In this document: positions 14,341 through 63,410 of the stretch, in pieces
Layout: the number at the start of each line of letters is the position of its first letter
How positions within the stretch are numbered: position 1 is the first letter of the stretch
Assembly: GCA_964187785.1 (NCBI GenBank)
Contig: OZ076413.1
Coordinates: forward strand, 63,612,001 to 63,676,000
Direction: 5' to 3'
DNA length: 64,000 nucleotides
Source of the DNA: Amphiscolops sp. MND2022
Lineage: Eukaryota
The notes under the pieces: generated by a model
What the model saw: the letters and a program-made list of their open reading frames with translations, nothing else
What the model was told of the DNA's origin: nothing
The model's database searches: none
Position numbers and translations under genes: made by a program

Positions 14341-14355
14341 ACACTGACTGCGCCA
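14341..14355 (-). other. Primer-binding site
   Basis: Minus-strand TGGCGCAGTCAGTGT immediately after the 5' LTR. Confidence 0.8.
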
Positions 14356-26134: not shown

Positions 26135-26378
26135 AGTCAGTTTTCCGCTTGAACAAAACATTGTTCAGACATTTCGACTATAATTTTGTTCGTATCAAGT
26201 GTTTATTGATGACTCAAAACAGGAAGCTGTTGATTTTTTCATCAAAAAAAGCGTGACTGCATACGGAAAAAGTGAACAAAGTTTAGAAGAATACAGCCGC
26301 AAATAAACCAGGTACTTAGAACAGTTTTAACCCAAATTTAAATTGAATAAAATTTTAACAAACACTTTTAAAACTTCA
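26135..26378 (+). repeat. Polinton left TIR
   Basis: Reverse complement of 51426-51580 plus 49993-50087. Confidence 0.8.
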
Positions 26379-27366: not shown

Positions 27367-27850
27367 CTATCTTGAAAGATGGACTAAAAATCTCAAAACG
27401 TCTTCTTCTGTGGCATATGACGGAAAACTCGAAATTTGAATCAATTTTTCGCTTGTAAGTGACTGTTTTGTTCTATAGTAAAAATGTGCCAAACAAATAC
27501 AATATATGCCACAGAATTGACTATCAGCAGGCTGAAGTAGCGTCGAAGATGGCTTGTATTGAAAGATACTTTGATTTCTCGGACGGACGGATCGACCAAC
27601 TTTTGCAAAGATGTCCGCAAAATACTCTCGGAAATCTCTCCCGAAACTATCGTAAAGTAACACTGTGTCATCTTTCGAAGCGATGAGTAGCCAGTGTTCA
27701 CCAGGTTGAGTTGAGGGATGTGTGTTCACAATAATGAATCCATTTTTTTTGCAAGGCAGGAAATGTATCTCGGGCATAACAACCTCGAAACCGGAATTTG
27801 AGTACTGGGTCTTTGTTTATCAGGTCCGTTAACTGAGTGTTGTCAACCAT
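27367..27850 (-). pseudogene. Adenain-like cysteine maturation protease (one frameshift in a poly-A run near 27745)
   Basis: IVNTHPSTQPGEHWLLI, YDSFG, QPADSQFCGIYC; N-terminus MVDNTQL...FRGCYARD lies in the adjacent frame. Confidence 0.9.
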
Positions 27851-29179
27851 TGTAAATACTGGAGTTTTTGATAACTTCTCTGTTGCGATCAATGAGAACG
27901 ATGGACCTCCTCTCGCCCATCAAAATGAGACGAATTGGTTTTGTTGTTGCTTTGGAGAACTTCAGCTCTAGACCCAGCCGCGCGCCAGTGAGTTCAGGAC
28001 GAAATGTGTTGTCCTCGATGTGGTAATCAGCAGTTAATTTAAAAACCAGACAGAAATGGTTATTGAAATTGTCAAGAGTGATACCGTTACCACCATGTTC
28101 AAAACCAAGTGCCTTCAGAGTGTTGTAATAAGAACGAACGAGATTATCATTAAGATGCAAAGGCGTGGCCCCTACAAGTGCTCCCTCTCGATTGATTCGT
28201 ACAGTCTCGAGGTCCATTTGCTGAAAGTGGAAAGGATTTGTTTCGAAATTACCACTGAAGCTAGTTTCCGGCACCAAAAACAACACCAATCGACTTATCG
28301 GGGCACGGTTGAAGAGGTCGTCTCTGTAATACATAGTGACGCCGCTGGAGATTAGGAACGATTTGGGGACCATCTCACGAAAATCGTAGTGAGCGGCTTT
28401 TTTGGACAACATTCGCTCGATTGTTAGAAAAGTCTCAATTTTCAATTCCAGCTTGTGAACCAACAGGGAAGCGCTTACAATTTGTAAGGAGAAATCACCT
28501 GCTGAGTCTTTCGCACCTCCTTCATGGACCAACACAAATTGGTCGGGTGCGCGATAAAGTCGAATTCCGACCTCGACACCAGGAAGTAGAAACTTATGAT
28601 TGTCTGCCAAGAAGTTATCGGCAATTCTACCGTAAAGACTCCACTTTGACGTCAAATTTTCACCAACTTCTTCCTGTTGCTGAATGCCTCATCACCACTA
28701 ATGTCTCCAGGATTTGTTTCGAAACTGTACCCTTGACAGCGTAGCCAGCCTTCTTTACACGAAGCGTTATGCGAAAGTTCTGCCTCAACCAACGCTTTGT
28801 ATGGATATAAGTTGTTTGCTGACGACACTGGTGTCCCGTTAAGGGAAACCTCTACATTTTGGAATAAACTATGCATTAAATTGTTAACAAAAACAGGTTT
28901 CTTATCAGTTACATCGTCATCATCACCTCTGCCAACAAATTTCATTTTGACCTCCAATTTCAGGAAAAGATTAACCAAGTCTATTACTGTACCTCGAATG
29001 TCGGTTTTGGCCCCCTGGAAATCAAACTCCAACACCGGCCCATCCGCACTGTTTGCAGTGAAAATTTCCTCATGATAACCACGTTGAAAATCGACAAGGA
29101 TCTCAGAGGTCCCAAACAATGACAGTCCTGAATGCATGCCAGGTACTGGTGGCTCGGAGTAAATAAATGTATCAGGCAT
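27843..29179 (-). pseudogene. Major capsid protein (double jelly-roll, PY/hexon-like), frameshifted near 28655
   Basis: LSLFGT..., GPVLEFDF, FVNNLMHSLFQNVEVSLNG, LYPYKALVE, NPFHFQ, LKFSKATTKPIRLILMGE; two consecutive ORFs, about 445 aa combined. Confidence 0.88.
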
Positions 29180-29259
29180 AATGAAAAGTGAAGTATAATT
29201 AACAGTTGAAAGTTTTTAATCTCAGTTATCGTAGCAAACGAAAAGATGTTCAGGCGCGA

Positions 29260-31933: not shown

Positions 31934-32547
31934 TGCATTCGCTGTGTATGAACGTTTTGATTTGTGATGTAGCTGAGACAATTGCGATTGATTACAAGAT
32001 CATTGGCTCGTTTTAAAGAAATTGCTTTTGTTGGGGGGAATAAAATGTTCAAAACAAGAAAGTATTCTTGGGGCACCTTTTTTCGATACTGTTGAAGATC
32101 GCGGAGAAACTGTAGAATTTTGATGCTACTCGTTGGCGTTTCATGAGCCAAATTGTTACTCGTGAAAGAGAATGTAGCATTGGATTTATTGAATCTTATT
32201 CCTCTGGTCGATATCATCAGGTCTATTAACCCCTGAACTCTTTTTCTGCGGATAGACAATTCATGTTGTGTCTTTTGTAGGTCTTTTTCAGATTCCTTCT
32301 CTGTTTTGGATTCCGGTAAAGGTTCAACAATTCCTTGGAGCCATCCTTTTTCAGCGGCGGGCGGCTCTTCACTGGAGTTTGATTGTTTTTCAAATGTTAC
32401 ATCGGGCTCAGAGTTCGGAGCATTTGGATAATGTGTTTGGTGGGTCGTGAAACATGAAGTAGTATCTGCTGTAGTACTGTTGATATCGCTGACCGATGAA
32501 GTAAGCTCAAGGTAATGAGATAGGGGAATCAACACAAATTCTTCCAT
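31930..32547 (-). CDS. Polinton accessory protein between ATPase and integrase (PZ-like, by position; 205 aa)
   Basis: MEEFVLIP N-terminus and gene position resemble those of other Polintons (from memory, unverified). Confidence 0.6.
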   Translation of the reverse strand: MEEFVLIPLSHYLELTSSVSDINSTTADTTSCFTTHQTHYPNAPNSEPDVTFEKQSNSSEEPPAAEKGWLQGIVEPLPESKTEKESEKDLQKTQHELSIRRKRVQGLIDLMISTRGIRFNKSNATFSFTSNNLAHETPTSSIKILQFLRDLQQYRKKVPQEYFLVLNILFPPTKAISLKRANDLVINRNCLSYITNQNVHTQRMQ

Positions 32548-32608: not shown

Positions 32609-33715
32609 TCAACGATGATTCGGACTGTATAATGCATATTCCCGGTAAAGAATAGAAGAGGGCGACAACTTTGGAAAGGCAATGATTGGATAGTTTTTGG
32701 TCCTGTTTACAGTAATGTTGTGTGTGCCAATAGTGTGATCTTTATAGACACGAGCGTAATTGTTGAAAATTCTTTTAGGAACGTAAAACCCAGTCGGTAG
32801 AACCTTTTTGAGATTGATGAGGATCCGACTGTCTGGTTTCTCTTTCTTTTGCGTAATGTTGGTGGTTGAATGCACTTTTGATCGTTGTTTGTTTTGTTTA
32901 ATCAGCGTAGTTATGTCGTCGCTAGCTCTGCAGATACGAGTGCTAAACCTGATGGCATCATGACAGTTGGTGCTGAGATCAATCAGCAGGTGTCCATGTG
33001 GCACGGATGTGGCCAACTGGTAAGCATCTTGAAGGAACGCAGCATCAGCAAATTCCAGTTCGGACCCCAGTAGCCTGAGCTGCCGACCTATTCTTGGTGA
33101 CTTGAGAATTATCAAATGTGTTGTATTTTTGTCGACCGTGACACAATATTTACCCTGCTGGTACAAGTTATGCTTGATAAAAATCACATTGACCCCTTTA
33201 TGTCGACCAGCAGTTGCAAGATTGGCGAAGGTTGCGCTCTGAAGAATTTCTTCGCACGAGTCATCAAAAATTGCCAAGGCTTTTTCATTTCCAAACGTTG
33301 TATGGTATTTGCTTTCCTGGGATTGATGATCCAAGAGTTTTGAAATCAGTGTATCTATTCTTGAATGACTTGTCTTATGACCTGGGGTTTGGTGTTTCTG
33401 ATTACCAAGTTTTGCAAGGCCGGTTTCGTTCTCCGTTTCAACCACGTTTTCAAAGAAAACTTTGCTTGGCACATCTTGATAAAATTGTTCATATATTGTT
33501 TGCCAATGGCGGTAGAAGAGGATAACTTTTTCGAACCTCGGCCAGAAAATACCGTCGGAACGACTGGTCAGCATGTTTAGTAAAAGGTGTGTTTTACCAG
33601 AGCCTGATGCGCCACAGATACACATAAAAATGCGATTTTCTGTGGAAATTAATTTATTCATTTCGTTATTTATTTGATCTGTCGAGATTATCGGCATTGG
33701 GTAACAAGTAGGCAA
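32609..33715 (-). CDS. A32/FtsK-like genome-packaging ATPase (368 aa)
   Basis: Walker A GASGSGKT, Walker B AIFDD, arginine finger AGRH, HGHLLIDL. Confidence 0.92.
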   Translation of the reverse strand: MPTCYPMPIISTDQINNEMNKLISTENRIFMCICGASGSGKTHLLLNMLTSRSDGIFWPRFEKVILFYRHWQTIYEQFYQDVPSKVFFENVVETENETGLAKLGNQKHQTPGHKTSHSRIDTLISKLLDHQSQESKYHTTFGNEKALAIFDDSCEEILQSATFANLATAGRHKGVNVIFIKHNLYQQGKYCVTVDKNTTHLIILKSPRIGRQLRLLGSELEFADAAFLQDAYQLATSVPHGHLLIDLSTNCHDAIRFSTRICRASDDITTLIKQNKQRSKVHSTTNITQKKEKPDSRILINLKKVLPTGFYVPKRIFNNYARVYKDHTIGTHNITVNRTKNYPIIAFPKLSPSSILYREYALYSPNHR

Positions 33716-34661
33716 TGCAAGTGGAAAGAATCATGAAATGAGCAGTTCGTTCTTCACAATTCAGTGAGGATACCAATAACATTCGACTAACGGAGAACAA
33801 AACAAGACCCATGACGAAAAAAATCTGTGAGAAAAAAATGAAAAAAGTTCGGCTTATTTGCCAATTGAAGCAGAGCCAAATGTCAGAGTCCTCTTCCACG
33901 TCAAAATTTATACTGCAGGAAAGATTCATTGCGTCTTTTGACTGGTTGTAAAGACTAAGTGTTGCATTTGATTCTGGCAAACAATTATAGTCAGGGTAAT
34001 CCACGCCTTCAATCTGCGTGTCGGGTTCAATCGGCAACGCTACCGAAGTGGTTGAAACAGCAGGAACCTCGTTTTTTCCCAGATTTGCTTCATTTGATTG
34101 CTGATCGTGACGTTTTTGAGGTGATGAAAAACATTGCGCTGTTAATTCCGTTCTTTTTGAGTGTTGATTGGATGATTTCTTTACAGTGCGTTGTCTTTTC
34201 TCACTTTGGACTTTCACAGGTACTCTCGGGGCCGGAATAAGATAGGCTAACGTTGAGCTCAGAATGCTCATATAAATCGATGTATCGTGACACGAATTGT
34301 CAGTTATTTCTCGGTTCTGTTTTGTGCTTGCTTCAGTTTGGGATGTGATAAGTTTCAACAGACAGAATGCGTCAAAAATAAAAATGACAGCAAGTTGTGT
34401 CAAAAATACAGCTTGAGAAAACGGTAAGCAACGCGGTGACTGCCCAATGGACTCACAAAAAGACTCATCATTTTGTCGATCGCTAGCTTTGACCCTCTGA
34501 CTCTGACTGTGGAGGTCCGCCAACTTGTACGAGGTTAATTCTGATGACCCAGGGGATTTGTTACCAACTTTTCGTTCACTAAGAGGCGAGATGTCACTCT
34601 TTTCTAATCTCGTCTTTATTTGTGTCCTCGTCTGTTCCGTCGTGTACAAATTGTATCGCAA
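33666..34661 (-). CDS. Membrane protein with two copies of a 2-TM motif (331 aa)
   Basis: VFLTQLAVIFIF..FCLLKL...YMSILSSTLAYLIPAP and FFIFFSQIFFVMGLVLFSVSRM...FMILSTCIAYLLPNAD. Confidence 0.7.
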   Translation of the reverse strand: MRYNLYTTEQTRTQIKTRLEKSDISPLSERKVGNKSPGSSELTSYKLADLHSQSQRVKASDRQNDESFCESIGQSPRCLPFSQAVFLTQLAVIFIFDAFCLLKLITSQTEASTKQNREITDNSCHDTSIYMSILSSTLAYLIPAPRVPVKVQSEKRQRTVKKSSNQHSKRTELTAQCFSSPQKRHDQQSNEANLGKNEVPAVSTTSVALPIEPDTQIEGVDYPDYNCLPESNATLSLYNQSKDAMNLSCSINFDVEEDSDIWLCFNWQISRTFFIFFSQIFFVMGLVLFSVSRMLLVSSLNCEERTAHFMILSTCIAYLLPNADNLDRSNK

Positions 34662-37758: not shown

Positions 37759-37955
37759 AAAGTCTGAAACACAGCAGTTCGTTAATTGGGCCAGTTTTGA
37801 TTATTAACCAAGGAGGATGTTTTACCCAGATGATCAATCGAGATTTAAGCACAAATTATATTTTCAAAAGCAAAGTAATAGCCACACAACAAGGGCGAAT
37901 GTTTTACAAACTTGATAAAATTAATGTATGTCTAAAATAAATGAGAAGTTATTGT

Positions 37956-40900
37956 TCAACCGACGTAACCAAACGGTGTAGATTCGCCGGAATTTGTGTT
38001 GAAAACACGTTTGTTACTTGTGACTCGGGCTCGTTTTTCACAAAACTTGTTTTTCAGTTGGCCTGTTCGAACACAACGACTCAGACTACTGTAAGGACTT
38101 CGCAATTCATGAGTCTCACCAAGCACGAGTTTTCTGAAGGTATCGGGGTTGAATGTTTTCTCTGTAGCCCTATTCAGCGTTACACCCTTGACTTTGAAAA
38201 TATTATACTCCAGTCCTGTTTTAACGTTGTGACCAGACAAGCAATAAAACTTTGGCCCTGCACACCAAAATTTGTCAATCAAGATATCAGGAGGCAGTTC
38301 GTCGGTCATTTCGCCCAGTCCACTCCCAATTGAGATATCCGGGGAATCGGTCAGAGATTGATCGTGGACATACATGATACTGTCTGTATCACAATAAAGT
38401 ACATTTTTAGGATTTTTCACCAGCTGCATATTGTTGAAAAGTATTATACGAGCATGTGCAGTTGTGAAGGCAGCAAGAATCACACTTGTCTTCCGTGGAG
38501 CGTCTGCCGCGTCATCAATGAGTTGATTTTGTAGCAGCATCAAATCATCGCCCACTAGAGTCGCATCAGTAACTCTTTTTGTTCGCGATGTGAAATAGTC
38601 CACGACCTCTCGATAGTTGTTGACGTACCTCGTTTTTGGCATATTATCCCGCATTCCGAGATAACCCCAGAAGCTGTTCAAAAGTATTTTAGCAATAAAG
38701 CGTAGACCTTGGTTTTTCTCTATCCTCGCAGGGTCAAGTGAAATGCCTTCTTTCTTCATCATCTCCTGAAGGTAACGCCTCTTATGCTCGCATATCATTT
38801 CTGTCGATGAATCAGAATTCATCTTCTCTTCACAGCGGCATGTTTTTGGCCAACCAGATGCCTCCATTTTTATTTTCAAAAAGTTATCGATATATTCTGT
38901 GAACAATGTCACAGACCTTTTTGCTCTCGACCAACTCCAAATCTCTGCTACATCTATCACTCGGTATCCTTTTTCCAAAGCAAGCTTAACTTCTGGGGTA
39001 GCAAATGTGCCCCAGAAACTCCTCTCTTCCACTTGGCGATGAACACACTTCTTTGATGTCAAGTCCACACTCTTTTTGTCAGGCATGCTGGATCTTTCTT
39101 CAACGCAACTTCGACATAGCGGGAAAAACAGTTTCGATTGAAATTTGAATGGTAAAATGGGTAGATGTATATCAGACGGTGGCAGTACTTGGCATTTTAT
39201 CAGACCAAAATAATCCTCGTTTTTCAGTTTTAATTCAACAAAAGTTAAGGGGAATTCTAAAAGCGTTCGTTGCGAGAACTTTCGGAACCTCTGTGGTGGA
39301 GGCAGAGAATGTGATTGTTCAGCTTCACATTGATCTCCTCCCGAGTCTCGTTCGTTACTGGGCATTGTAAGAATCCTGTCAACCCGATCCAAAAATTTAA
39401 ACTCCACAGCTTTACCTTGAGCTACATTCACATCCTCGTCAAAGCAACTTGTTTGAGGCGGTTTTTCATTGGCAGAGTTGCTGTTATTCCGACCCTTTTC
39501 TTTACGCGCAATCGATTGTTGTTGCTGTTCTGTAGCAATCAGAATCAAATCAGCATGCCCTGAAGGGTACACTGACCTCGAATTCACATATGGGTACAGC
39601 GAACAAACATCGACATACTTGAAGGTCTGAGACTGTAGTTGTCGAGACCACTTCATGACAAAATTTTCTGTTCTTCCTCCAAAAAAAGCGTCACGAGGCT
39701 GTAACGGACTGTAACGAATGCTGTCATTTGACATCTGTTGCAGTAGTTTGATGTTACCCAGCCGATACAGTAAGGTCTGATGTATTACACGACTTTGTTC
39801 GACCTGCTGGATGTCATCGGAAATGCTCGAGGGGGAGCTGCTGAGTTTTGCTGCTACTGACCTCGGCAAATGCGTCCACGTTGTATCAATTCCTTCTTCG
39901 TCTTCAGATATGGACAGTTCCAACAGTTTTTTAAACTCACATTCCCAAATGAAAAATATACTATGCACAACAAAACGTAAGTTATCTGTTGTTGTGAAGA
40001 CTGTGCCGTTCGAGATTTGATCTGATATCCAGTCCAGTCTGTCCATAGATGTTGTGGTGTACAAATCATGCATTGTTGTAGCATTTCGTTTCTTATTAAC
40101 CTCATCTCGGTCTGTATAACAAGAAGGACACCCGTGGAAGTAACATCCAAAAAACTCCAAAACTATCGACAGTTGTGGTTTCTGGACAACACTCCCACAT
40201 GCGGTGCTCTTTGATTGAGAATTTCGTTTGTACAGAAGAAGTCCGTCTACTTTGAATGATCCAAGTGTCTGCTCCTTACCTCTGCCTCGCTTCAATCCTC
40301 CGCCTGATTTATACAGACGAATACTGAACTCGTTTGACTTCCGATCATTTGCAACTTGTTCCACCCACGACAGGCAAACGGCAGCCGGGAAAGACGTTAA
40401 CTCATTGCCCGTGTAACCGTTCTGAGGGAGGATTGCGATGGAGTCCTTCGGCATGAATAGTTTTCTATAAATGTAATTACATGCTGATGCTGCTGTGCAA
40501 GCGACTTCGAACGGATCTATTCCGCTGCACACTTTCTTGATTAATGTTCTAAACTTCAAAAAACCCTCTTTGAGTAGTTTAACATCTGACTGACAGTACG
40601 ACACGAGTTCTTGTTGAAAGTCGTAAACGAGCTTATTAACTTTATAAAGCTGGGTCTTTGCTGAGTACCATTCCAAAAACGTGCTCACCGTTTGCGGTCC
40701 TTTCATCGAATTCAAAGCAAAAAGGCACGCGGGTGGAAATTGGCCTTCTTTGAGAGCAAACTCTTGGCATTCTTCTTCTTGGTCATTTCCTGCATTGAAG
40801 CAGCTAACATTGCTTTGTGTAGCTACACAGTGATTGCAGTCGTTGGAAACAATTTTGCGCAGATTGCAGTTGCCCCTTTCTCGCATGTTTGTAAACTATG

Positions 40901-42990
40901 CAGCTTTGAAGTAGCGGCGGGATAGAGGGCCTCTTTAGATGTCAAAAAATGAGGAAAGTATCCTTTTTTCAATTCCTTGAGATTGAACGTTGTGGGAAAT
41001 TTTGATAAAGGTATCGGGATGAAAAAATAAGAGTCAATGAATCGTTTATTCCCCACACGCATTGACACAACCTTGTTACCTCTGAGCAAAATTTTGGGAA
41101 CATATTTGTGTTGTTTGTAGAGCCATTCCAGGATTGGTAGGAAATCGAACCCACTGCCAAAATGGGCAATAAACCATTCAGTTTGACGAACCCTTTCAAC
41201 ACTAGCAAAAACATCCTCACAAAAATCGTTTATACAATCGTAGCCACAGTAAATAACTTCATCACCTGTCAAAGACTCTGCTGCCAGTAGAATTGGTTTA
41301 TGTAGCCCTTCATTGCCACAACTCTGGTCAGTTTCTATGTCAAAAACCCAAATTTTGTCATCCGAGGGAGCCAGTGCAAATTTGTTTGCTGGCTGGTCAC
41401 GGGACGTAACAGTACCATCGTCATCGACTGGAGCGTTGCTCATTTTCCTGCGTTTGATTTGCGTCATCGGATCTTCTTTCTCAACTTTTTCACGATAATT
41501 CTCTCCGCCCAATATTTCACAGTCAGGAAAATCGTTACTGGTATCACCAACCGGTATTTCTCGCTCTATACATCTCTTCGGTTTCTGTACGAAACATTGA
41601 TGTTCCGATGAAGGCGAAGAGGTGTTTTTACGGTCTGACAATGAGTAATGAACGGAGCATGTAGAACAGCGTTTTTTTGAGCAAATATGATTGGAGAATG
41701 CTCGCTTAGGTACAGTATTGTCGCATGTAGGGCACAAAGTGTACAAATGACACACCCCAGAGGTAACATGGCAAGCCAGACACTTTTGCCTTCGTACCTT
41801 TAGCCTGCATCTATCACACTGGAAAACCGGTGACTGGCGAGGGTTCTTTGACAAGTCCTTGGACGCGGTAGTCCAAGTGAGCGGCAAAAGGTTGATGAAA
41901 CCGGTCCTATTGAGACAGCCAGGCTGCCGACACAGCAAACAACCACTGGCAGAGCATAAATGCTTCACTGTGGAAAAGGCCTTGTGACAACTGTAACAGT
42001 AGTGGCGAGCATCGAATAGTCCTTTCATTGAGGTAACTAAATCTACATGTCTGTTTTGAGCATCATACAAAAGGTCGATATTCTGCTGTGCTTCCTGATT
42101 ATAACATTTAAGGAAAGGGCCCATAAAGTTGCTATCGTAAACAGATAAACAAAAGTCTTTCAACACTTGCGACTGAGACAAAAATTCTAAATCTTGTAGA
42201 GCAAGAGGTTTACCAGAAGCAGGAGAGGTTTGAGCTGTCTGATAGTGAAGCAACCCAGTAGAGGAGTCGTCAAAGGCAGAGGTGGGAAGTCTTTTCGAGG
42301 AAGCACCACCAGCCAAAATTGTCTGCAATTCGTCTTGGGGGATGCTTGGATCAGATTTCAGAAGGGTTATCAAATGCTGCATTTCACGCGTTTGCACGGA
42401 AGCCCGATCCAGGTGCAAGTTTTTTGTCGTTTTTCTTTTATTAGGCGGCAGGGGAGATCGCTCCTTAACTTTGATGCCAATTGCTAAGGCCCGCAAAAGA
42501 CAATCGTTCTGGTCACTTTTGATTACAATTATTGACTTCTTTTGTTTCGTGAAGACTTGATATCGGGAGCAGTCCTGCTCTGTATGCCTCCAAGCCGGTT
42601 CTCGCCCATTGTTGGTAAAGAAACACTCAAAACGTTGACTTTGATATTGTTACTAATATCAAATGACTCGTTGGAATTAACGACCCTGTCAATTTCATCG
42701 AGAATCGGTTCGGCGTTGAAATCCGCTACGGACGAGAATGGGATATGAATAGGATAGTTGAGGGTAGGCGCATTCAATACCAATCGAATTCTGTGTGAAT
42801 GACCAGGAAGATCTTGCTGTATCTCAGATATCAATTTGTTGATGAGGTGGTTGAAAATCTCTTTAATTCGATCCAGCACACTTTCAATGTCCGTGAAGTA
42901 CACTTCATAGTCTCTGCTGGCCGCTCGCAACAGACTACGTCTTTGTGGCATTCGATTTACACTATAGAACTGCTCAGGATTGAACCCCAT
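37956..42990 (-). pseudogene. polB: Protein-primed family B DNA polymerase (~1680 aa, two frameshifts near 42520 and 40860)
   Basis: ExoI DIETD, AHFGSGFDF, FIDSYFF, KGYFPH; VDG...LEFFGCYFHGCP insertion; DVCSLYP, KILLNSFWGYLG, YCDTDS; OTU-like KKSIIVIKSDQNDCLLRALA across the first frameshift. Confidence 0.95.
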
Positions 42991-43559
42991 GGCATAATCT
43001 GCAACAAACGCAATGCAACAAGAATTAAACGTGTCACAGAAGCAATTAAAACTACTGTAAAATTGATGAAGATTCCAAATAGTAAGAAAAAACAAAATCA
43101 ACAACATAAATTATATGAAGAAGGTATTTATATAAATGGTCCGGAAACAAACTTGTATACGCAACACGTCACAGAGGGGTTAGCCTGATGAGTATAAATG
43201 AGAACCGAAGTACTGTATGAAAAAATGCCTATTTAGAAGCCAATAAGTGAAACGTAATGAGAAGTTGGCCAAAATTATAAAAAAGGTCAAACTTAACGCA
43301 CGCGCAAGAACAAACAAACAAACACATATACAACAAAACATCGAGCTTTAAGAGACGTTTAGTTCATGAAAACTTCATCATCATCATACTCAGTGGTGGC
43401 TATGTTCGTACCAGTCTCACCGTTGAACATAACAAAATCTCGTTTCTCAAACAATTTTTGGTTTTCAACGTCGGCCTCGATTGTTATGTTCTCATTGTCG
43501 CCATTGGTCAAACAGTCGTCCGTGACATTTTGGGCCCGCTTCTTCGATGTGGTTGTGGT

Positions 43560-44522: not shown

Positions 44523-45710
44523 TTATAGAGCTTGCGGCGGCATTCTGGTAATTCTGTCGGCTTCCAAGAGAGACTTTCGCGTAATCATCAGGGGATGAAG
44601 TTCGTCAGTGATCGTTGAACTTTTTGAGCAATTATGAAAATAGAATTTTTCCACCAGATGTTCAACAAATTTGTTCGGCCATTGACATCTAAACAAATCT
44701 TCGGCCTGCTCTTGATACATATTCAATAAACATTCTGGCACGAGATTAGACAGGGTTTTTGGCTGATTGAAGATCTCTAGTATCATCAATGATTCGGTAG
44801 TTTTAGTGAAAAAAATTCTAATCTCATAAGGGAGGTCACGTCGAAAACAGATTGTCTGCAAAAGTAAATTGCCGTTGAGGTCAAATCGCAGCACACCCTG
44901 CTCAAAATCGATAATGAGAAGAAATTCGAAGATATTCTCGTTATTGCCATTGAGCCAAATGGTCTCCAGTTTCTCGAGGCAGTCGTCTGGCAAGAAAATA
45001 AGAGTGTCATTTTCAACCAACTGCATTTCTCTAACATCCCAGTAAAATTTAAAAGGGAACCCATCGTTGACGGAGTCCACCGGCAGGCTGCTCAGACCAA
45101 AAATGAAGCGTGTTTCTCCGACCAGCAAAGATGGGAAATCATTGATCTTTGCGAGGACCTTGAAGACCCTGACGGCTTGATTGTCGTTGAGGTTGTTGAA
45201 AGTTATATCAGGAACTGCTACATCATGATTGAAGATACCATCGTCACTCCAATCATCGTCCGAATCCGAATCGCCAGCGGGGAAATCTTTTTCAATTTCA
45301 TCGTAATCAATACCGAGGACTAGATTGTCGAAGGATCGCTTGTAGTGGTAATCCATCACCTCGTATTTTTTCCATTTTATTGGCTTCACGTCCGTGTTTG
45401 AACCGAGGAAACCTCGGTAAACGTGATTGACGTCCTCGTCAATCGATTGACAGGGAAAAGAAACTTTGCTGTAGTCTTTTACAGTAGCGCTGTAACCAAG
45501 GAAATTATTCGTGAATTGCTCAACGTACGGCGTGAAGACGACAACGTGGAAACTTGACTGGCGACCTCTTCGAAAATAGTCGTCAAGAACTTGAAAAGCG
45601 TCCCGCTGCTTTCGGAACTTCATCTCCTGAACAAACACACAAAAACAACGTCGTTCTATAAAATCTACAATCATAGTCTCTGGAATCTGTATTGCTGAAA
45701 CTATTTTCAT
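44523..45710 (-). CDS. Orphan Polinton protein (395 aa), possibly the last exon of a spliced gene starting at 49540
   Basis: Long intact ORF with a central acidic patch (DSDSDDDWSDD); no recognised domain. Confidence 0.7.
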   Translation of the reverse strand: MKIVSAIQIPETMIVDFIERRCFCVFVQEMKFRKQRDAFQVLDDYFRRGRQSSFHVVVFTPYVEQFTNNFLGYSATVKDYSKVSFPCQSIDEDVNHVYRGFLGSNTDVKPIKWKKYEVMDYHYKRSFDNLVLGIDYDEIEKDFPAGDSDSDDDWSDDGIFNHDVAVPDITFNNLNDNQAVRVFKVLAKINDFPSLLVGETRFIFGLSSLPVDSVNDGFPFKFYWDVREMQLVENDTLIFLPDDCLEKLETIWLNGNNENIFEFLLIIDFEQGVLRFDLNGNLLLQTICFRRDLPYEIRIFFTKTTESLMILEIFNQPKTLSNLVPECLLNMYQEQAEDLFRCQWPNKFVEHLVEKFYFHNCSKSSTITDELHPLMITRKSLLEADRITRMPPQAL

Positions 45711-45950: not shown

Positions 45951-48900
45951 TTGCACGGGGAGCTTGGCAAAAGCAAAAAACAAAAATCCGCGCGACGCGG
46001 ATTTTGTCCGGCCACCCACGGGGTTGTTACACAAGTCCTACGTACGTGTATGCACTTGTATTGTACATTGGCAATGCGCAAACAACACAAAAACAACATT
46101 CCCAAAATGCACGGGGAGCTTGACAAAAGCAAAAAATAAAAATCCGCGCGACGCGGATTTTGTCCGGCCACCCACGGGGTCGTTACACAAGTCCTACGTA
46201 CGTGTATGCACTTGTATTGTACATTGACAATGCGCAAACAACACAAAAACAACATTCCCACATTGCACGGGGAGCTTGGCAAAAGCAAAAAATAAAAAAC
46301 CGCGCGACGCGGATTTTGTCCGGCCACCCACGGGGTCGTTACACAAGTCCTACGTGCGTGTATGCACTTGTATTGTACATTGGCAATGCGCAAACAACAC
46401 AAAAACAACATTCCCACATTGCACGGGGAGCTTGGCAAAAGCAAAAAATAAAAATCCGCGCGACGCGGATTTTGTCCGGCCACCCACGGGGTCGTTACAC
46501 AAGTCCTACGTGCGTGTATGCACTTGTATTGTACATTGGCAATGCGCAAACAACACAAAAACAACATTCCCACAATGCACGGGGAGCTTGACAAAAGCAA
46601 AAAATAAAAATCCGCGCGACGCGGATTTTGTCCGGCCACCCACGGGGTCGTTACACAAGTCCTACGTGCGTGTATGCACTTGTATTGTACATTGGCAATG
46701 CGCAAACAACACAAAAACAACATTCCCACATTGCACGGGGAGCTTGACAAAAGCAAAAAATAAAAATCCGCGCGACGCGGATTTTGTCCGGCCACCCACG
46801 GGGTCGTTATACAAGTCCTACGTGCGTGTATGCACTTGTATTGTACATTGGCAATGCGCAAACAACACAAAAACAACATTCCCACATTGCACGGGGAGCT
46901 TGGCAAAAGCAAAAAATAAAAATCCGCGCGACGCGGATTTTGTCCGGCCACCCACGGGGTCGTTACACAAGTCCTACGTGCGTGTATGCACTTGTATTGT
47001 AGATTGGCAATGCGCAAACAACACAAAAACAACATTCCCACAATGCACGGGGAGCTTGACAAAAGCAAAAAATAAAAATCCGCGCGACGCGGATTTTGTC
47101 CGGCCACCCACGGGGTCGTTACACAAGTCCTACGTGCGTGTATGCACTTGTATTGTACATTGGCAATGCGCAAACAACACAAAAACAACATTCTCACAAT
47201 GCACGGGGAGCTTGACAAAAGCAAAAAATAAAAATCCGCGCGACGCGGATTTTGTCCGGCCACCCACGGGGTTGTTACACAAGTCCTACGTGCGTGTATG
47301 CACTTGTATTGTACATTGGCAATGCGCAAACAACACAAAAACAACATTCCCACATTGCACGGGGAGCTTGGCAAAAGCAAAAAATAAAAATCCGCGCGAC
47401 GCGGATTTTGTCCGGCCACCCACGGGGTCGTTACACAAGTCCTACGTGCGTGTATGCACTTGTATTGTACATTGGCAATGCGCAAACAACACAAAAACAA
47501 CATTCCCACAATGCACGGGGAGCTTGACAAAAGCAAAAAATAAAAATCCGCGCGACGCGGATTTTGTCCGGCCACCCACGGGGTCGTTACACAAGTCCTA
47601 CGTGCGTGTATGTACTTGTATTGTACATTGGCAATGCGCAAACAACACAAAAACAACATTCTCACAATGCACGGGGAGCTTGACAAAAGCAAAAAATAAA
47701 AATCCGCGCGACGCGGATTTTGTCCGGCCACCCACGGGGTCGTTACACAAGTCCTACGTACGTGTATGCACTTGTATTGTACATTGGCAATGCGCAAACA
47801 ACACAAAAACAACATTCCCACAATGCACGGGGAGCTTGACAAAAGCAAAAAATAAAAATCCGCGCGACGCGGATTTTGTCCGGCCACCCACAGGGTCGTT
47901 ACACAAGTCCTACGTACGTGTATGCACTTGTATTGTACATTGGCAATGCGCAAACAACACAAAAACAACATTCCCACAATGCACGGGGAGCTTGACAAAA
48001 GCAAAAAATAAAAATCCGCGCGACGCGGATTTTGTCCGGCCACCCACGGGGTCGTTACACAAGTCGTGCGTGCGTGTATGCACTTGTATTGTTCATTGGC
48101 AATGCGCAAACAACACAAAAACAACATTCCCACAATCCACGGGGAGCTTGACAAAAGCAAAAAAAATCCGCGCGACGCGGATTTTGTCCGGCCACCCACG
48201 GGGTCGTTACACAAGTCCTACGTGCGTGTATGCACTTGTATTGTACATTGGCAATGCGCAAACAACACAAAAACAACATTCCCACATTGCACGGGGAGCT
48301 TGGCAAAGCAAAAAATAAAAATCCGCGCGACGCGGATTTTGTCCGGCCACCCACGGGGTCGTTACACAAGTCCTGCGTGCGTGTATGCACTTGTATTGTT
48401 CATTGGCAATGCGCAAACAACACAAAAACAACATTCCCACAATGCACAAGGAGCTTGATAAAAGCAAAAAATAAAAATCCGCGCGACGCGGATTTTGTCC
48501 GGCCACCCACGGGGTCGTTACACAAGTCCTACGTGCGTGTATGCACTTGTATTGTACATTGGCAATGCGCAAACAACACAAAAACAACATTCCCACAATG
48601 CACGGGGAGCTTGACAAAAGCAAAAAATAAAAATCCGCGCGACGCGGATTTTGTCCGGCCACCCACGGGGTCGTTACACAAGTCCTACGTGCGTGTATGC
48701 AGTTGTATTGTACATTGGCAATGCGCAAACAACACAAAAACAACATTCCCACAATGCACGGGGAGCTTGACAAAAGCAAAAAATAAAAATCCGCGCGACG
48801 CGGTTTTGTCCGGCCACCCACGGGGTCGTTACACAAGTCCTACGTGCGTGTATGCACTTGTATTGTACATTGGCAATGCGCAAACAACACAAAAACAACG

Positions 48901-49040
48901 ATCCCACAATGCACGGGGAGCTTGACAAAAGCAAAAATAAAAATCCGCGCGACGCGGATTTTGTCCGGCCACCCACGGGGTCGTTACACAAGTCCTACGT
49001 GCGTGTATGCACTTGTATTGTACATTGGCAATGCGCAAAC
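45951..49040. repeat. Tandem array of about 20 near-identical 156-bp units
   Basis: 20 unit starts (CACGGGGAGC) spaced about 156 bp apart; each unit contains AATCCGCG-CGA-CGCGGATT and CATTG-G-CAATG inverted repeats. Confidence 0.97.
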
Positions 49041-49232
49041 ACAAAAGCAATGTTTTCCACACAAAATTTTTTCGAACTGAAGGTTTATTGTACATTCGTT
49101 GTTACAATAGGAAACTATTTTTTGTTGCCTTTTTTTCAATGATTGTGCAACTTGACTTTCGTTAAGGTTCTCAATTGCTAAAGGGCGCAAATAAAAAATT
49201 TTGTCAAAAATATGAACATTGCTTCAACATAC

Positions 49233-49540
49233 CTCGGACATTGAGTCCTGGGAGATCTCCGATGAATAAATTTCTTCTTCTTCTTCGTAGGGCGGCGGCA
49301 AAACAAAGATCGGGGTGGTAAGCAGAGGCGACTGCGAGTTGGCGTTGATGATTCTAGAATAAAACAGTTTGATTTGCAAGCTCGTGAAAATTTAATAAGA
49401 ATTTGTTTTCAATCCAGTAAGCAAACGAACTAATAAATAACCCACATTTCCATTTCTGGATAGTTCTGGGTGGTGGTGGCGGCGATGCTGGTGGTGGTGG
49501 TGGCGGCGATGCTGGTGTTGTTGTTGTTGTTTTGAGACAT
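49233..49540 (-). CDS. Candidate spliced N-terminal exons (49540-49446 and 49353-49233) encoding a PPPY-motif peptide
   Basis: A GT-AG intron at 49445-49354 joins ATG49540 in frame to ...VLPPPYEEEEE...; donor GAG/GTATGT follows at 49232. Confidence 0.45.
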
Positions 49541-49749
49541 GCTATAACAGAAAAAAAAACTAAAGAAGCTTGCTATTTTTGTTGATTGGGAATGGAAATT
49601 CAGTTAGAAAAATACTAACATTTGCTGCGGGATTTTGTATAGTCGTAGAAGATTGAGTAGAAGTGTTAGCGTTGAAGAAAGAGCTGCTGTTGTTGATAAA
49701 GAGTTGATGATGAATAGTTGTGCAATTGAAAATTACAACAGATGAGTGT

Positions 49750-49922
49750 GTGAGCCAATTCTATTGGCCGTGAGAGCGCACGAAATTTTAAAAAAATGCT
49801 GCATATGGGAACGGCGCGGAAAAATCCGCGCTCGTATAGCCTGCGCGGATTAATCCGCGCTCGTGTAGCTTGTGCGGATGCGCGGGAAAAACCGCGCACG
49901 GCCGCCAGCGCGTGCGCAAATT
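49750..49922 (-). promoter_or_regulatory. Putative subterminal promoter/origin: inverted CCAAT pair, E2F-type site, nested CGCG palindromes
   Basis: GCCAATTCTATTGGC (~49753-49767); GCGCGGGAAA (49880-49889); perfect 18-bp palindrome GCGCGGATTAATCCGCGC (49843-49860). A CG-rich island in AT-rich DNA, upstream of the whole minus-strand cassette. Confidence 0.55.
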
Positions 49923-49992
49923 AAATTAAAAGCAGCCACGCGTGTGCATATAGGAATGAATATTCATTTCCTTTTCAGTGATTCTTAAAAGA

Positions 49993-51580
49993 ATTTGTAA
50001 AAGTACTTGTGTTAAATTTTAATTGAATTAAAATTTGGGTTAAAACTGTTCTAAGTACCTGGTTTATTTGCGGCTGTATTCTTCTAAGTTTGTATTTGAA
50101 TCCTAAGCGATCACCCTGAGAATAAAGTTAAAACTGAAGCTTTCTGGTTGGTATTCAAGTCTATTTGTTACAAGATTTTCACTAACTTCCAAAAAAATTT
50201 GGTGGTGGGGGGGAACAGAAAAGGGCCCCTCCCCCATTTAATGTGGGCGGAAAATAACTATCAGTTAACAATTGCAGAAACTCATTTCTGCTATCATAGC
50301 ATATACACAAAGTAGAAGTTTAATGCAGATTCTCAAATTAAGAAATGAGCACTTCATAACTCAAAGGTTTGGGGGGAGGGGGCCTGGAAAAGTACCAAAT
50401 CTGTAGGTGAAACAGACGAAAGTTGAGAAAACGGAAAAACTCCCAATTTTGCTCAAAATCAGCTATTTGTAACTTCCACAATTTTTGTCCTAGAAAATTT
50501 CAAAAAAAACCATTGTAAACTAGATGAAGATCTAATAATTTTTCATTTCTGATGTTTTTCAAAACTTTCAACCGATTTCGAGAAAATCGACAATAAAATT
50601 GCCCGGGGGGTGATTTTTTAATCACAGTACTGTACTGGAGTTCAGCTTGTCAATTATTCAATTTGACAGCCTTTCTCAGGAGCGAAACAATTTCACGCAT
50701 CAAATGTGTGAACGAATTGACTGGTACAGACGTCTAGTTTGTTTTTCTGAACAATTCTCAGTTCAAGGTTTGATTACGTACCGAGAGCTCTCTTTTATAT
50801 GATCGACAGAAAACGAAGAGTTTCAGTGCCTTGTTTACTAATATCACCAATTATAATGAGTGGTTTTTGGCGAGTTTCCGTTTTGTCTGGTTCGCCCAGT
50901 AGAAGACCTTTAAGAACACGTTTCGAAATTTCAAATGAAACAGACGTTTATCAGACAGGTTTGACTTGTACTTTGAACCAGAATAACAAAAACCGCTGAC
51001 AATTTGAATTTTTTGTTTCCGAACAAAACTGTCTCAACTGAAATCTGGCTGATAAAATATGATTTGCCACTTTTTGATTGACAGTTTAGTTCACATTCCC
51101 ACTTTTCGAGATTCATACTAATGTTTTGTTTATTCATATTCCTGGATTTGAGCAAACACGTTTTAAATTAAAAATTGTACGCGTAATAAATTTCTCTGGT
51201 GGTTTTCCTGATGTTTGTCAACAATTCAATAAAATTTGTTGGCAAGGTTGAAATCTTCGCCTTTTCAATCTTCGGAAATCAGAAATATTCTTCTAATAAT
51301 TAGGAATATCTTTGAATAAGCAGGATTTTTGGCTCTTTTCTGTAACTAATAAACTTGAATACAAACCAGAAAGCCTCAGTTTTAACTTCATTCTCAGGGT
51401 GATCGTTTAGGATTCAAATACAAACTTTGTTCACTCTTTTTCCGTAGTCACGCTTGCAGTCACGCTTGTTTTGATGAAAAAATCAACAGCTTCCTGTTTT
51501 GAATCATCAATGAACACTTAATACGAACATAATTATAGTCAAAATGTGTGAACAATGTTTTGTTCAAGCGGAAAACTACT
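49993..51580 (-). repeat. Polinton right TIR, split into 49993-50087 and 51426-51580 by an insertion
   Basis: Both halves are reverse complements of contiguous parts of 26135-26378; ends in ACTACT. Confidence 0.8.
50088..51425. mobile_element. ~1.34-kb non-autonomous TIR element nested in the Polinton right TIR
   Basis: ~85-bp imperfect TIRs GTTTGTATTTGAATCCTAA...TTAGGATTCAAATACAAAC; absent from the left TIR. Confidence 0.8.
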
Positions 51581-51849
51581 CTAATAGAAGTTAACTTCCT
51601 GTTATGAAAGAAGGTTTTACTTTTAATTAGGCTAGTCTAAAGTTTTTAAGGAAAGTTATTTTCAAAAATTTTGGTGGTGGGGGAAACAGAAAAGAGCCGG
51701 ATTTTTCTGCACTACTACTACTACTACTACAGATTGTCATGCGCTCTAAACCCCGAACAAACTCTTCGAAACTGGAAAGCTCTCGCATTCCTGTTGACAG
51801 TTTTTTTCTAATTTTCACTTTTGAGAAATTTCTTTTTCTTTGGGTCACC

Positions 51850-52840
51850 TAGTTTGAGGGCTGTTTGTAAATGAGCAAGAATTGATGAAAACCACTCTTT
51901 CTGCGTTGACCTTGTCAACCATCATTACAAATGCGAAGTCCAATTGTTCAGGAGTTGTTCCTTCAGAAATTTCACAGGGGCGATAATATTTGAAGTGTGC
52001 AATAGGCTTGTGTAACTGCAGATAGGCTAAGCCCTTGGCAGTTTTTCCGTCTTCAACCCTAGTCGAGATTGCTTGAAGTTTTTACATTGCTGCATGGAAA
52101 CATGCAGCCTAATTTTTCACAAAACATGAAAAATTCAGCGAGCATACAAGGAAAAATTATGAAAGAATCACTAATTCAATCAAAACTGAAAACATTTCGA
52201 CTTGTTCACCGTCGCAATCACATTCCTTTCACGCTTAAGTTTCTCAAGTAAGTGACTTCTTTAAGTTTAATTGCATTGAAGTCGCGGTAAAATTGATGAC
52301 GGCTCAGCTGCTTTCAAAATTAGAACTGCTTCTTAATGAAACCTTCAAAACTTCGTGGCTCGGAATTGCCGGCAAATTTAGGATGATGCATCTTTTAGAC
52401 AGCAGCTTGACAAAATTTGATTGAATCAGTGAAGTTTTAATGCATGGAAGTTTCCTCGACAATTTTGACAAATCATGAAAAATTAGCTTGGTAACCTACA
52501 AAAACCTTGGAAAAAGTTCAAGCAGTTCCAACCAGGGAAAGTTCAAATCTGGGGATCCTACTCTTTTGACTTCAAATTTTTCGGACCTTTTTTGATAGTC
52601 GGCTGCTTTGTATACCGTCAGGTTTTGAGGTGACGTAACACCGCCCAGTGCTTGGCAAATTTCTCCTCCTTCACATACACAGTAAAATGACGTAATAATT
52701 AGATATTCGTTCATGATGACACCTGTGCAGGTACTTGAACGTCCTTGGTTTTCAACAGACACCAAAAACACAGGGTCCGAAGCGATGGCAGTAGCTGTTA
52801 TGCTAGCCAGAGCAATAAAAGCGGAAACAACAAATACCAT
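51850..52840 (-). CDS. Probable host gene (or fragment): secreted, catalytically inactive trypsin-like serine protease homolog
   Basis: Signal peptide, then CTGVIMNEYLIITSFYCV (TAAHC-like, H>Y); a second segment (~52078-51850) has GLAYLQLHKPIAHFKYYRPC (DIALLKL-like, D>G). Confidence 0.55.
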
Positions 52841-53408
52841 TTTCTGTTTGACTTGTTTTCAACTAAGTGACCAAATGGAAACGGACTGCAATGATGGATT
52901 GGACTTCGGATGATGAATTAATTAGTCTTTCTGTAGTTTCCAAATACTTGAAAAATTGTTCACAGCGTCGTGAACAAAAAAGTGGTCAGAATAGGTAGGA
53001 TTAACAGATGGTGTCTCGGTAAAACGAAAAACAATCAAATTGAACGTCAAAAGGGTGCTGGACTGTCCGATATAAACGAAAAATAAGTCTCATATACGTA
53101 TGGTTTTCAACACCTGACGAATACACAGGAAACTTCTCGGAGAATTGATACTCTGAAAGCATTAAAATATTAAAAACAATGATAGCAAACAAAACTATGA
53201 TTTTTGAAAAAAATGGCTTTTTTTACCGCGCTTTGTCGAAATTAACTTTGAAATTGATCGATTGAAAATTCAGTTTTTTCTATGATGACATAATCGAGTA
53301 TTTTTGTTCATTCGACAATTGTGGAAAAGCTATCAATTTTGAAATATATGTCCAAAACATCAACAATGAGTGACGAAGAGCGAGTACCGAGTTACTGAAG
53401 ACACGCTC

Positions 53409-54110: not shown

Positions 54111-54499
54111 TGCGTATAACAGCTGCTTTGGTATTTTACGCAAAACGTTACGCTGTCGGCTCGATTGATGTTATCCCAAAGATTTTTTAAGAAAATATAG
54201 AGGAATGAGATAACATGAATTGAAGAGGTTATAATGTTTCAAATTGCTTGGTTAAAATTGTGATTTAAAAGCACTCAACTTTACTCTGACCAAGTAGCTC
54301 CAATTCTCGGAGCTATAAGCTGTGAGATATATAAACACAATTAGCAACTCATAAATATCCGGTTAGAGGCGTATAAATTTACATAAGATTATATCATCCG
54401 ATACTTTTATGGTCGCGACTAAATACCACTAAGTTGAAGTCCGTTGATCTAAAATGAAACAATAAACGTCCGCTGGCCTCTCAGGCATCGGCGTCAACA
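54111..54499 (-). repeat. BEL 3' LTR
   Basis: Follows GGCCGGC after the integrase end, starting TGTTGACG on the minus strand; its distal ~70 bp match 63411-63482. Confidence 0.65.
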
Positions 54500-54529
54500 C
54501 AGCCGGCCCAGTTTTTGGCTCCAAAAACA

Positions 54530-55833
54530 CTTTCATCTTCCAGCAGGGGGACCAGTTTCACAGCTGGCCTATGAAACTCTCCTCTTGCAGTGCCTACACA
54601 AGCGCTACGCACATGTCCATCATCTCCGGGAAATACCTTTGTGATAACACCCAAGGGATACTGTCATCGTTTTGGGTAGTTATCCAATATCCAAACTACG
54701 TCACCCGAATGGGGTTCTTTGCCACTAGCGGATTTCCATTTACTTCGCTGTTGTAACTGCGAGAGATATTCTTTCATCCAGCGCTTCCATATTGAATCGC
54801 AGAACTGTTCAGATGCTTTCAGTGCTCTTCTGTAGTTCACTGATTTTCATGTTTGCAGGTAGATTGGATAATCTATGGCAGGTCTACCGATCAGGAAATG
54901 ATTAGGAGTGAGAGCTTCGCAATCTTTCACATCTCCACTGACCGTTGTTAGTGGCCTTGCGTTGGGCATTTGTTCCACTATGCATGTAACAGTTAGTAAG
55001 ATGTCGTCGGTGAATTTTTGATTCTTCAGCACGTGGTACATGCTTATTTTGCATGACCTTACCATTCTTTCCCAGCTGAGCCAAAGTGTGGGGCTGCAGG
55101 TGGATTCATAGACCACTGAATTCCTTTGATTCGAAGGCTGTCCTCGATGGAATTTTGGTCAAGTTTGCGGAAGAATTCATCGAATTCTCGTTTTGCACCG
55201 ACAACATTCGTTCCGTTGTCTGATAGTATTGTCAACGGCTGTCCTCGTCGAGCGATAAACCGCCTTACTGCTGTCACACAGGCATCGGTATCCATTGAGC
55301 TAACTACTTCCAGATGAACCGCTCGAACCACTAAACAAGTGAAGAGACAAATCCACCTTTTTTCAGATCTTCTTCCCACTTTTACCTCGAGAAGACCGAA
55401 GTATTCCATTCCAGTGTTGGCGAAAGGATGAACCTTGTCTGCTATTCTGAAAGAAGGAAGATCTGGTTGATCTGAATTATCTTTTGCGCATTGTTGGAGA
55501 GCGAAATTTGCACAAGTGGGGGAAGACTTTGCGCCAAAGATGTGTCGGGTGTATTGGAATACTCCAATGGCATCTTGGGGATCAGCTCGCCAAAGAAATC
55601 GAAGTAAAGATTGATCAGATTTGTCAACGCCCACTTGTAGAAACATAGACGCAATATCTGCTGTCATCGCCCATTTATGCTGGCGGAATTTGAAGAGGAC
55701 TGCTAAAAGTTTTTGTAGCAAATCTGGTCTTGTCATCAACATATCATTTAATGATACACCTTGATGTTTTGCAGCTGCGTTACACACTCTTCTCACTTTC
55801 TCTATTTTGTGAGGGTGCTTCACGGGGTGGTGC
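54530..55833 (-). pseudogene. Third, internally deleted RT/INT copy carrying the only integrase C-terminus
   Basis: RT start fused to INT core at ~55465 (DNSDQ/PDLPSFR); continues to LTPNHFLIGR and RPAVKLVP. Confidence 0.85.
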
Positions 55834-63394: not shown

Positions 63395-63410
63395 CCTGGT
63401 CTGGACACCA
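63393..63410 (-). other. BEL primer-binding site overlapping the gag ATG
   Basis: Minus-strand TGGTGTCCAGACCAGGAT, complementary to a tRNA-like 3' end (ATCC...ACCA). Confidence 0.75.

Follow-up and report, generated by a model that had tools for sequence, protein, structure and literature searches.

What is a contiguous block of about 20 closely similar 156-bp units, each with its own palindrome, doing inside a virus-like mobile element? The original prediction described such an array, and it is real: Tandem Repeats Finder reported a period of 156, 19.9 copies and 97% matches for the single long array in the window, i.e. the whole 64,000-nt stretch of DNA analysed here (Table 1). Cutting at an anchor that occurs once per unit gave 20 units, 19 of them full, and the units follow each other without spacers, as had been predicted. 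The full units differ from one another by a mean of 4.4 positions in 156 (2.8%), and 23 distinct substitutions occur across all 20 units (3.1 kb); the 4 indel events are confined to units 15, 16, 19 and 20, the right-hand quarter of the array. An expansion created by the assembly is ruled out, since 18 of the 19 full units have distinct sequences and the array is also present on other contigs.

The palindrome AATCCGCG-CGA-CGCGGATT is intact in 18 of the 20 units. The inverted repeat that had been described as 8 bp is therefore present, but its arms are actually 10 bp long; palindromes equal to it arose in 7 of 3000 dinucleotide shuffles. CATTGGCAATG is likewise kept in 18 units and TGCGCAAA in all 20. 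The TTGGC-N5-GCCAA pattern in the block at unit positions 108-124 may be an NFI-type site, and parts of the unit may resemble NFI or C/EBP sites. Whole units folded no more stably than shuffles (DNA z -1.6, RNA z -0.5), their autocorrelation gave no sign of internal 39-, 52- or 78-bp subunits (at or below shuffles), and the unit had no match in a phage collection. The predicted CpG-rich composition against an AT-rich background is right in direction but mild, with a GC content of 48% in the array versus 42% in the element's coding part and a CpG observed/expected ratio of 1.34 versus 0.94. The window as a whole, which also contains Gypsy- and Bel/Pao-like elements and short introns, has little CpG depletion; together these features suggest a host of invertebrate type.

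The array grades at both edges into unit-like sequence whose phase is nearly the same on the two sides, an agreement that we estimate at about 15% by chance. Between the flanks there are only 8-9-mer matches, with no target duplication and no terminal repeat. The phase match and the lack of a target duplication fit duplication in place. No second array block was found in the window, where the best matches outside the array were 13-mers and local alignments were near background. A nucleosome-length phasing array, one of the roles first suggested, found no support: there is no ~10-bp A/T dinucleotide periodicity (P 0.90, 0.32 and 0.24 at 10.4, 9.75 and 11.1), and only the length of the unit is nucleosome-like.

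Table 1. Coordinates of the array, its host element and associated features in the window (a point marks features without strand)
Feature	Position	Strand	Remarks
Tandem array of type-A non-coding units	45952..49041	.	19.9 x 156 bp, Tandem Repeats Finder
Palindrome of unit 4 (one per unit)	46451..46473 (unit positions 25-47)	.	10-bp arms, 3-nt loop
CATTGGCAATG-CGCAAA block of unit 4	46534..46550 (unit positions 108-124)	.	reverse CCAAT plus TTGGC-N5-GCCAA with one mismatch
366-aa ORF behind the array	44523..45626	-	ATG 45623, preceded at 3 nt by an acceptor-like site; frame matches donor 49232
AATAAA, possible proximal poly(A) signal	49084..49089	-	~45 bp before the array, then T/GT-rich sequence
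Predicted small spliced first gene	49136..49619	-	GT-AG introns 49619-49542, 49445-49354 and 49232-49178; ATG 49540
Inverted CCAAT-box pair	49755..49767	.	just upstream of the first gene's leader
Three 18-bp GCGCGG-N6-CCGCGC palindromes	49814..49897	.	at 49814, 49843 and 49880; only ones in window; AATCCGCG half-site in common with unit
Protein-primed PolB, three ORFs	37956..43110	-	Pfam DNA_pol_B_2 on last ORF, E 1e-20; two upstream ORFs by position
Packaging ATPase	32609..33730	-	Pox_A32, E 1e-6
Adenovirus-type protease and probable major capsid protein (two ORFs)	27367..29215	-	protease E 1.5e-5; Capsid_N E 0.006, below cut-off
Left TIR remains	26139..26377	+	outer end missing; pairs with both right TIR segments
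Right TIR segments 49991-50087 and 51422-51577	49991..51577	-	an 87-bp internal inverted repeat encloses 1.2 kb of extra sequence
Right terminus, (AGT)6 then AAAAATCCG	51698..51728	-	(AGT)6 at 51711-51728; AAAAATCCG is the 9-mer of 19/20 units and of 49820

Host element and distribution of the array in its family

Judged by its gene content and ends, the element of ~25 kb around the array is Polinton/Maverick-like. Pfam matches above cut-off were obtained for a protein-primed DNA polymerase (pPolB; PF03175), a packaging ATPase (PF04665) and an adenovirus-type protease (PF00770). The ORFs at 30920-31999 may be integrase-like, as judged by eye, and had no rve match. Over the 210 aligned bases of the paired terminal inverted repeats (TIRs), 9 differ (4.3%). 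In the body of the element, 16 of the 17 ORFs of at least 160 aa lie on the minus strand, downstream of the right end; transcription therefore most likely starts from that end. A candidate HUH protein (36847-37800) had no match in Pfam, PHROG or the PDB, and its predicted model reached a pLDDT of 31.

At the right end, a small first gene is predicted, with introns of 78, 92 and 55 nt (in order) and a frame that stays open across the junctions for 85 codons. The array had been placed in a 5′ non-coding region, which holds for non-coding but not for strictly 5′, since this predicted gene precedes it. In the gene model, donor 49232 joins in frame either to 49177, giving 85 codons, or to 45626, giving 439 codons, and the array is predicted to be intergenic or to lie within a 3.6-kb intron. 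The predicted model of the 366-aa downstream protein has a pLDDT of 31. An acceptor before every ATG was considered as a general rule and was not borne out, being clear at a few ORFs only.

The array was traced through the element family at the protein level, by way of the spurious ORFs that gene callers place over it, which were searched with array translations and by cluster look-ups. Detection in this way needs chance ORFs, so that all array counts are lower bounds, and the contigs are told apart indirectly, by an assumption under which some may be alternative haplotypes. At least 57 array-derived ORF records were found on at least 23 other contigs, of which 18 also carry the downstream gene. 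Three of the remaining five run from the array into window-like flank, one does so by eye (P0086), and one (53012), which is array-rich with at least 25 units, is not tied to the element; ties by gene or flanks thus exist for 22 of the 23. Thirteen records on 10 contigs cross an array junction into the window's flank sequence. P0041 was dropped (34% identity, E 7e-4, not array-like), and P0069 and P0014, from the window's own locus, are excluded from these counts.

Viewed from the gene, the downstream protein falls into 7 clusters with 36 members, 33 of which are among the matches listed, on 30 contigs. One of these contigs is the window's own locus, where the proteins match exactly. Array matches are present on at least 18 of the 29 other gene-bearing contigs, and the 11 without a match, including the three most diverged copies (~72%), may reflect the detection limit or real absence. 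ORF coverage alone gives at least 10-13 units on several contigs with type-A units (defined below) and 20-26 units on three contigs with type-B units, two of which have more than one gene copy.

A host satellite that happened to insert at the window locus is excluded, because the same junctions recur in other copies and nearly all of the contigs are tied to the element. The question set by the original prediction, whether other copies of this Polinton have the array, is answered by its presence there, and on this sequence evidence the array belongs intrinsically to the element family, as had been proposed. A related alternative moves the event back in time, with a host satellite or Helentron-type central repeat captured by the ancestor of the family. 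The unit is similar in size to Helitron-borne repeats of 154 bp in D. virilis (PMC12910113) and of 160-180 bp in oyster (PMC8268682), and the array-rich contig 53012 is untied to the element. We nevertheless regard capture as very improbable: the other 22 contigs are tied to the element, the flanks are element genes and hold no target duplication or terminal repeat beyond 8-9-mers, no Helentron-type ends enclosing the array were found, its edges fade in nearly the same phase, and it has a motif in common with the element's own end.

Two types of unit occur in the family. Type A, on 15 of the 23 contigs, has 92-99% residue identity to the window's unit; type B, on the other 8, has 68-79% identity and an unchanged period (52 residues, 156 bp). 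Natural B units differ from the window's unit by at least 11-15 base changes, ~7 of them scattered and ~5 clustered at positions 142-156. The two types are at least 11-12 bases apart, a divergence of 7-8% of bases, compared with 13-21% of residues in the N-half of the neighbouring gene. In all 10 type-A contigs with a measurable N-half, the gene is 92-99% identical to the window's, and in 4 of 6 type-B contigs the N-half is 79-87% identical. In the gene tree, the first three B contigs form part of one well-supported clade and one (524844) lies outside it, and B arrays were later detected, as predicted, on two further contigs of the B clade. Several gene copies combine an A-like N-half with a B-like C-half; in these mosaics, the array matches whichever half lies closer to it. 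From these comparisons, unit type largely tracks element subfamily. The idea that the unit is better conserved than the neighbouring gene was dropped once several gene copies proved mosaic.

Type-A units differ by 0.060 of residues within a contig and by 0.064 between contigs, type-B units by 0.149 and 0.168, and units of the two types by 0.26 (P0089, a type-A record with flank sequence within the array, and P0088 omitted). Since diversity within arrays is about that between arrays, homogenisation occurred at the level of the subfamily, single insertions not being homogenised afterwards; by the same comparison, the array was copied with the element and then decayed. Recent or ongoing amplification, which the original prediction had suggested, therefore receives no support at the window locus. 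Nor does the array stand out by its homogeneity against decayed genes, as had been supposed. With 4.3% difference between the TIRs against 2.8% between units, and with four indel events in the array, it is not fresher than the element in a way that needs explanation. Comparison of the copies places the array before the split of types A and B.

A coding 52-residue repeat, or a repeated exon-intron module, would account for a period divisible by three, for one minus frame that is open for 771 codons and for the three of six frames of unit 4 that lack a stop. We give either practically no chance. No frame has a synonymous excess among the 23 substitutions (3/23 in the open minus frame, 27% expected), the two types keep different frames open, and the Pfam matches contain zero significant stretches. 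Frame changes are also frequent, with 34 in 6713 aligned residues for type A and 77 in 6796 for type B (P0089 counted in the latter), some of which may be homopolymer assembly errors. The coding repeat was rejected, and the exon-intron module together with it; the array is non-coding. Across the copies compared, it is thus an intrinsic, non-coding and subfamily-typed part of the element that is copied with it.

Motifs common to the unit and the right end

Outside the array, AATCCGCG occurs at three sites in 61 kb, all at 49823-49859 and within the three 18-bp palindromes. The region of these palindromes, which also holds TGCGCAAA and the inverted CCAAT pair, folds well (z -3.0) and, of 1211 150-bp windows, has the most GC-rich 8-mers in common with the unit (8 versus a mean of 0.3). 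It is a probable promoter or subterminal control region, and one subterminal site may resemble an E2F site. AAAAATCCG is found outside the array only at 49820 and at 51706, the latter 5 bp from the terminal (AGT)6. The half-sites are opposed in orientation, their GC ends pointing inward in the unit and outward in the subterminal palindromes, and the sharing of motifs could be a relic of origin instead of a present function. It lends circumstantial support to a cis-acting role of the array.

Variation among units bears on the same point. No fixed A/B difference falls within the 40 bp of motifs named beforehand (P ~0.03; ~0.09 with the 142-156 cluster taken as one event, and 0.13-0.28 for the palindrome alone). 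The palindrome has no shortage of rare variants, with 11 against 8.2 expected in type A and 33 against 31.4 in type B (P0089 counted) and rates at or above the mean, in a test limited by decayed insertions, which are not expected to show selection. Type B has a low-variation stretch at positions 114-137 (permutation P ~0.005, from overlapping frames that are not independent) that was not reproduced in type A, and the 108-124 block ranks 20th of 156 stretches for low variation (P0089 and P0088 omitted from positional variation and from this ranking).

We favour, with a probability of about 0.45, the reading that the array is a multimerised cis-regulatory platform of enhancer type that belongs to this Polinton family. 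One 156-bp segment, located past the first gene in a gap or in the first long intron, would have been duplicated in place. Slippage or unequal recombination during replication of the element would have multiplied it, and every new insertion would have received the array as one block, which decayed from then on. Each unit would repeat a DNA-protein binding module, consisting of the CGCGGATTTT half-site pair and the CCAAT/TGCGCAAA block, and the array would act as a platform for one or more factors that drive one-directional transcription from the element's right end, with an output that depends on copy number. An enhancer-type array is suggested because the half-site is otherwise found only in the triple palindrome and, as the 9-mer, beside the terminus. 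The reading is favoured by the family-wide presence of the array and the retention of ~3 kb in a ~25-kb element, by an array type that tracks the gene, by A/B differences that miss the motifs and by ORFs on one strand. It is weakened by the palindrome variants that are not depleted, the opposed half-sites and the 11 of 29 contigs without an array match. No factor that binds the unit was recognised among the element's proteins in Pfam, PHROG or the PDB (candidate models pLDDT 31).

The main rival is a tolerated neutral repeat (VNTR), in which a segment of the non-coding gap expanded through slippage or recombination and hitchhiked without selected function. The palindrome variants, an A/B divergence of the same order in unit and neighbouring gene, and the frequent frame changes, together with one rearrangement, in other copies all agree with neutrality, and a comparable adenovirus repeat ranges from 0 to 13 copies (PMC4500579). 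Against this, ~12% of a probably packaged genome has been kept in both subfamilies with the same 156-bp period, and the unit has motifs in common with the right-end region that A/B differences avoid. On balance we consider neutrality possible, though less likely than the enhancer-type reading.

With a possible proximal poly(A) signal on one side and the next acceptor on the other, the array might instead act at the RNA level, where it would tune the choice between the 85-codon product and a 439-codon product spliced across it, or read-through to the genes downstream. The AATAAA lies 45 bp before the array, donor 49232 has its two in-frame partners, the minus strand of each unit reads as a hairpin followed by a T-rich and then a GT-rich tract, and the TR-2 repeat of fowl adenovirus reportedly sits at the 3′ end of gam-1 and lowers its product (PMC9706605). 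However, an in-frame join is expected 1 time in 3 by chance, and the unit folds no better as RNA than shuffles do and has no Rfam match; in the whole window, no Rfam family reached its gathering score (one chance-level match, E 0.68) and no tRNA was found. Such a switch seems to us improbable.

The same low standing is given to an auxiliary origin or a packaging/retention signal, whose units would bind the same protein as the terminus. The repeat family of EBV oriP is a parallel for this role. The 9-mer AAAAATCCG, in 19 of the 20 units and close to the (AGT)6 terminus, is in favour, and the origin strength of baculovirus homologous regions (hrs) scales with palindrome number (PMC4535591). With a protein-primed PolB and a simple-repeat terminus, an internal origin would be unneeded; the array is a single block that is not AT-rich, its match to the terminus is only 9 bp, and no replication initiator protein was recognised among the element ORFs scanned (Pfam and PHROG; candidate models pLDDT 31). 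Replication of pPolB elements is expected to start at their protein-primed termini, and any origin role of the array would therefore be auxiliary at most.

Returning to the enhancer-type platform, a narrower and more speculative form of it, which we think unlikely, has one DNA-binding factor acting at the terminus, at the triple-palindrome promoter and at ~20 intronic sites, so that array length sets how the spliced, one-directional genome is transcribed and perhaps also how it replicates or is retained in the nucleus. If true, this would be an amplifier acting in cis, of which the literature searched gave no example in Polintons, and a handle on element activation. The same literature yielded little on transcription control or on the start of replication in Polintons/Mavericks. 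A conserved array that is typed by subfamily and has a motif in common with both terminus and upstream palindromes is a concrete candidate cis element, and it also marks subfamilies and recombinants. If the array is neutral, it is a further case of a mobile element with a satellite-sized repeat, as in Helitrons and adenoviruses. A regulatory role for a repeat found throughout the family and internal to the element is plausible.

Comparison with known systems

The element resembles other Polintons/Mavericks in its pPolB, packaging ATPase, adenovirus-type protease, probable capsid gene, TIRs and simple-repeat terminus. Intact vertebrate Mavericks lack introns and have their genes in two modules (PMC8097293), whereas here the long ORFs are on one strand and the first gene is seemingly spliced. 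Terminal palindromes are described for some virophages and PLVs (PMC8097293, PMC12220804, PMC12694884, PMC11296320, PMC4046053, PMC6431247, PMC8547959 and bioRxiv 10.64898/2026.07.28.741278, as a group). An internal palindromic array in a Polinton does not appear in the available portions of the literature on Polinton/Maverick/adintovirus repeats, and the original Polinton papers or Repbase entries may describe one. Satellites can resemble this class of element, as in a locust satellite similar to a Polinton coding region (PMC4935994) and an oyster satellite similar to Polinton sequence (PMC8268682).

Other mobile elements offer partial parallels. Helitrons/Helentrons carry arrays of ~150-180-bp units that spread with them (PMC8268682, PMC12910113), but the flanks here are Polinton genes. 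The 5′ UTR monomers of mouse L1 are subfamily-specific, and extra monomers raise promoter output (PMC9022269). In both systems, tandem units specific to a subfamily are found close to where the gene run of a mobile element starts; the L1 monomers, on average 3-4 of them, themselves form the promoter, whereas here ~20 units lie behind a probable promoter and first gene.

Baculovirus hrs, to which the original prediction had likened the array, are AT-rich, occupy several genome positions and combine a palindrome core with CCAAT-type motifs; their palindromes are imperfect, 24-28 bp long, and act through IE1 in a circular genome (PMC4535591). Repeated units with a palindrome core and CCAAT-type motifs in a virus-like DNA genome are common to both. 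Membership of the hr class fails, however, because the array is one block instead of dispersed and, at 48% GC, is not AT-rich; it also has a perfect 23-bp palindrome and lies in a linear protein-primed element. No IE1-type trans-activator was matched by Pfam or PHROG among the element ORFs scanned, many of which are without assignment. By analogy, the array may work like an hr, but it is not one.

In anatomy, the closest analogue is TR-2 of fowl adenovirus, whose function is itself unsettled. In a 2001 study TR-2 was reportedly dispensable in vitro. It has also been described as needed for efficient replication (PMC9706605). TR-2 of fowl adenovirus D consists of contiguous, near-identical 135-bp direct repeats, in 4-13 copies near the right end (PMC4500579, PMC9706605). 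The likeness is one of anatomy, namely a single block of similar unit size behind a gene in a linear genome of pPolB type. In contrast to TR-2, the array described here belongs to an integrated element, its unit carries a perfect palindrome common to the end region, and it exists in two subfamily types.

Mosaic copies and array rearrangement

We compared copies of the downstream gene (the 366-aa ORF beyond the array) with the copy in the window and found that several are mosaic (records P0002, P0015, P0017, P0019, P0022–P0024, P0026 and P0029), being 95–99% identical to it in the N-terminal half and 83–86% identical in the C-terminal half. This split in identity between the two halves implies that subfamilies of the Polinton have recombined with each other. 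In record P0089 (contig of length 664551), array units are followed by upstream flank sequence and then by units again, an order that appears to reflect rearrangement within the array.

Type-B units, the other unit type besides the type A of the window, were present in at least 20–26 copies on each of the contigs with lengths 53012, 26162 and 107233. In the latter two contigs, the downstream gene is found two or three times. For the contig of length 53012, no tie to the Polinton was found, and it could carry a stand-alone array.

Polinton ends and neighbouring elements

The right TIR (49991–51728) is complex, as it holds an 87-bp internal inverted repeat (50086–50172/51341–51427). The 1.2 kb between the arms of this repeat is missing from the left TIR, and terminal motifs are seen again at 50193–50259 and 51331–51343. 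On its left side, where the Polinton is truncated, it adjoins a 5.9-kb stretch with inverted ends (20226–26112), which is probably an inserted DNA transposon.

The Bel/Pao-like retroelement has 68-bp end repeats and contains a 2346-bp tandem duplication (copies 99.4% identical), which represents either a recent event or an assembly artefact. The Gypsy-like element has direct end repeats of 199 bp (95% identity). The ORF with an HxH-type motif is possibly the HUH nuclease candidate of the original prediction; it had no supporting match in Pfam, PHROG or PDB.

Other features of the window, in window positions
Feature	Position	Strand	Basis
Gypsy-like element	8479–14554		label by eye
MITE-like element	18115–18521		25-bp subterminal tandem repeats, inverted orientation
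ORF with HxH-type motif	36847–37800	-	sequence motif
Fragment	52499–52858	-	weak trypsin-family match (E 0.008, below cut-off)
Bel/Pao-like retroelement	54115–63483		label by eye

Gene layout and predicted splicing

A single strand holds 16 of the 17 long ORFs of the Polinton (26300–49620). Spliceosomal introns are apparent in its predicted first gene, and some of its ATGs (45623, 44069 and 27208) are directly preceded by acceptor-like sites. Together, these features suggest that the Polinton is one predicted transcription unit resolved by splicing. Such a predicted spliced unit differs from intact vertebrate Mavericks, which are intronless (PMC8097293).
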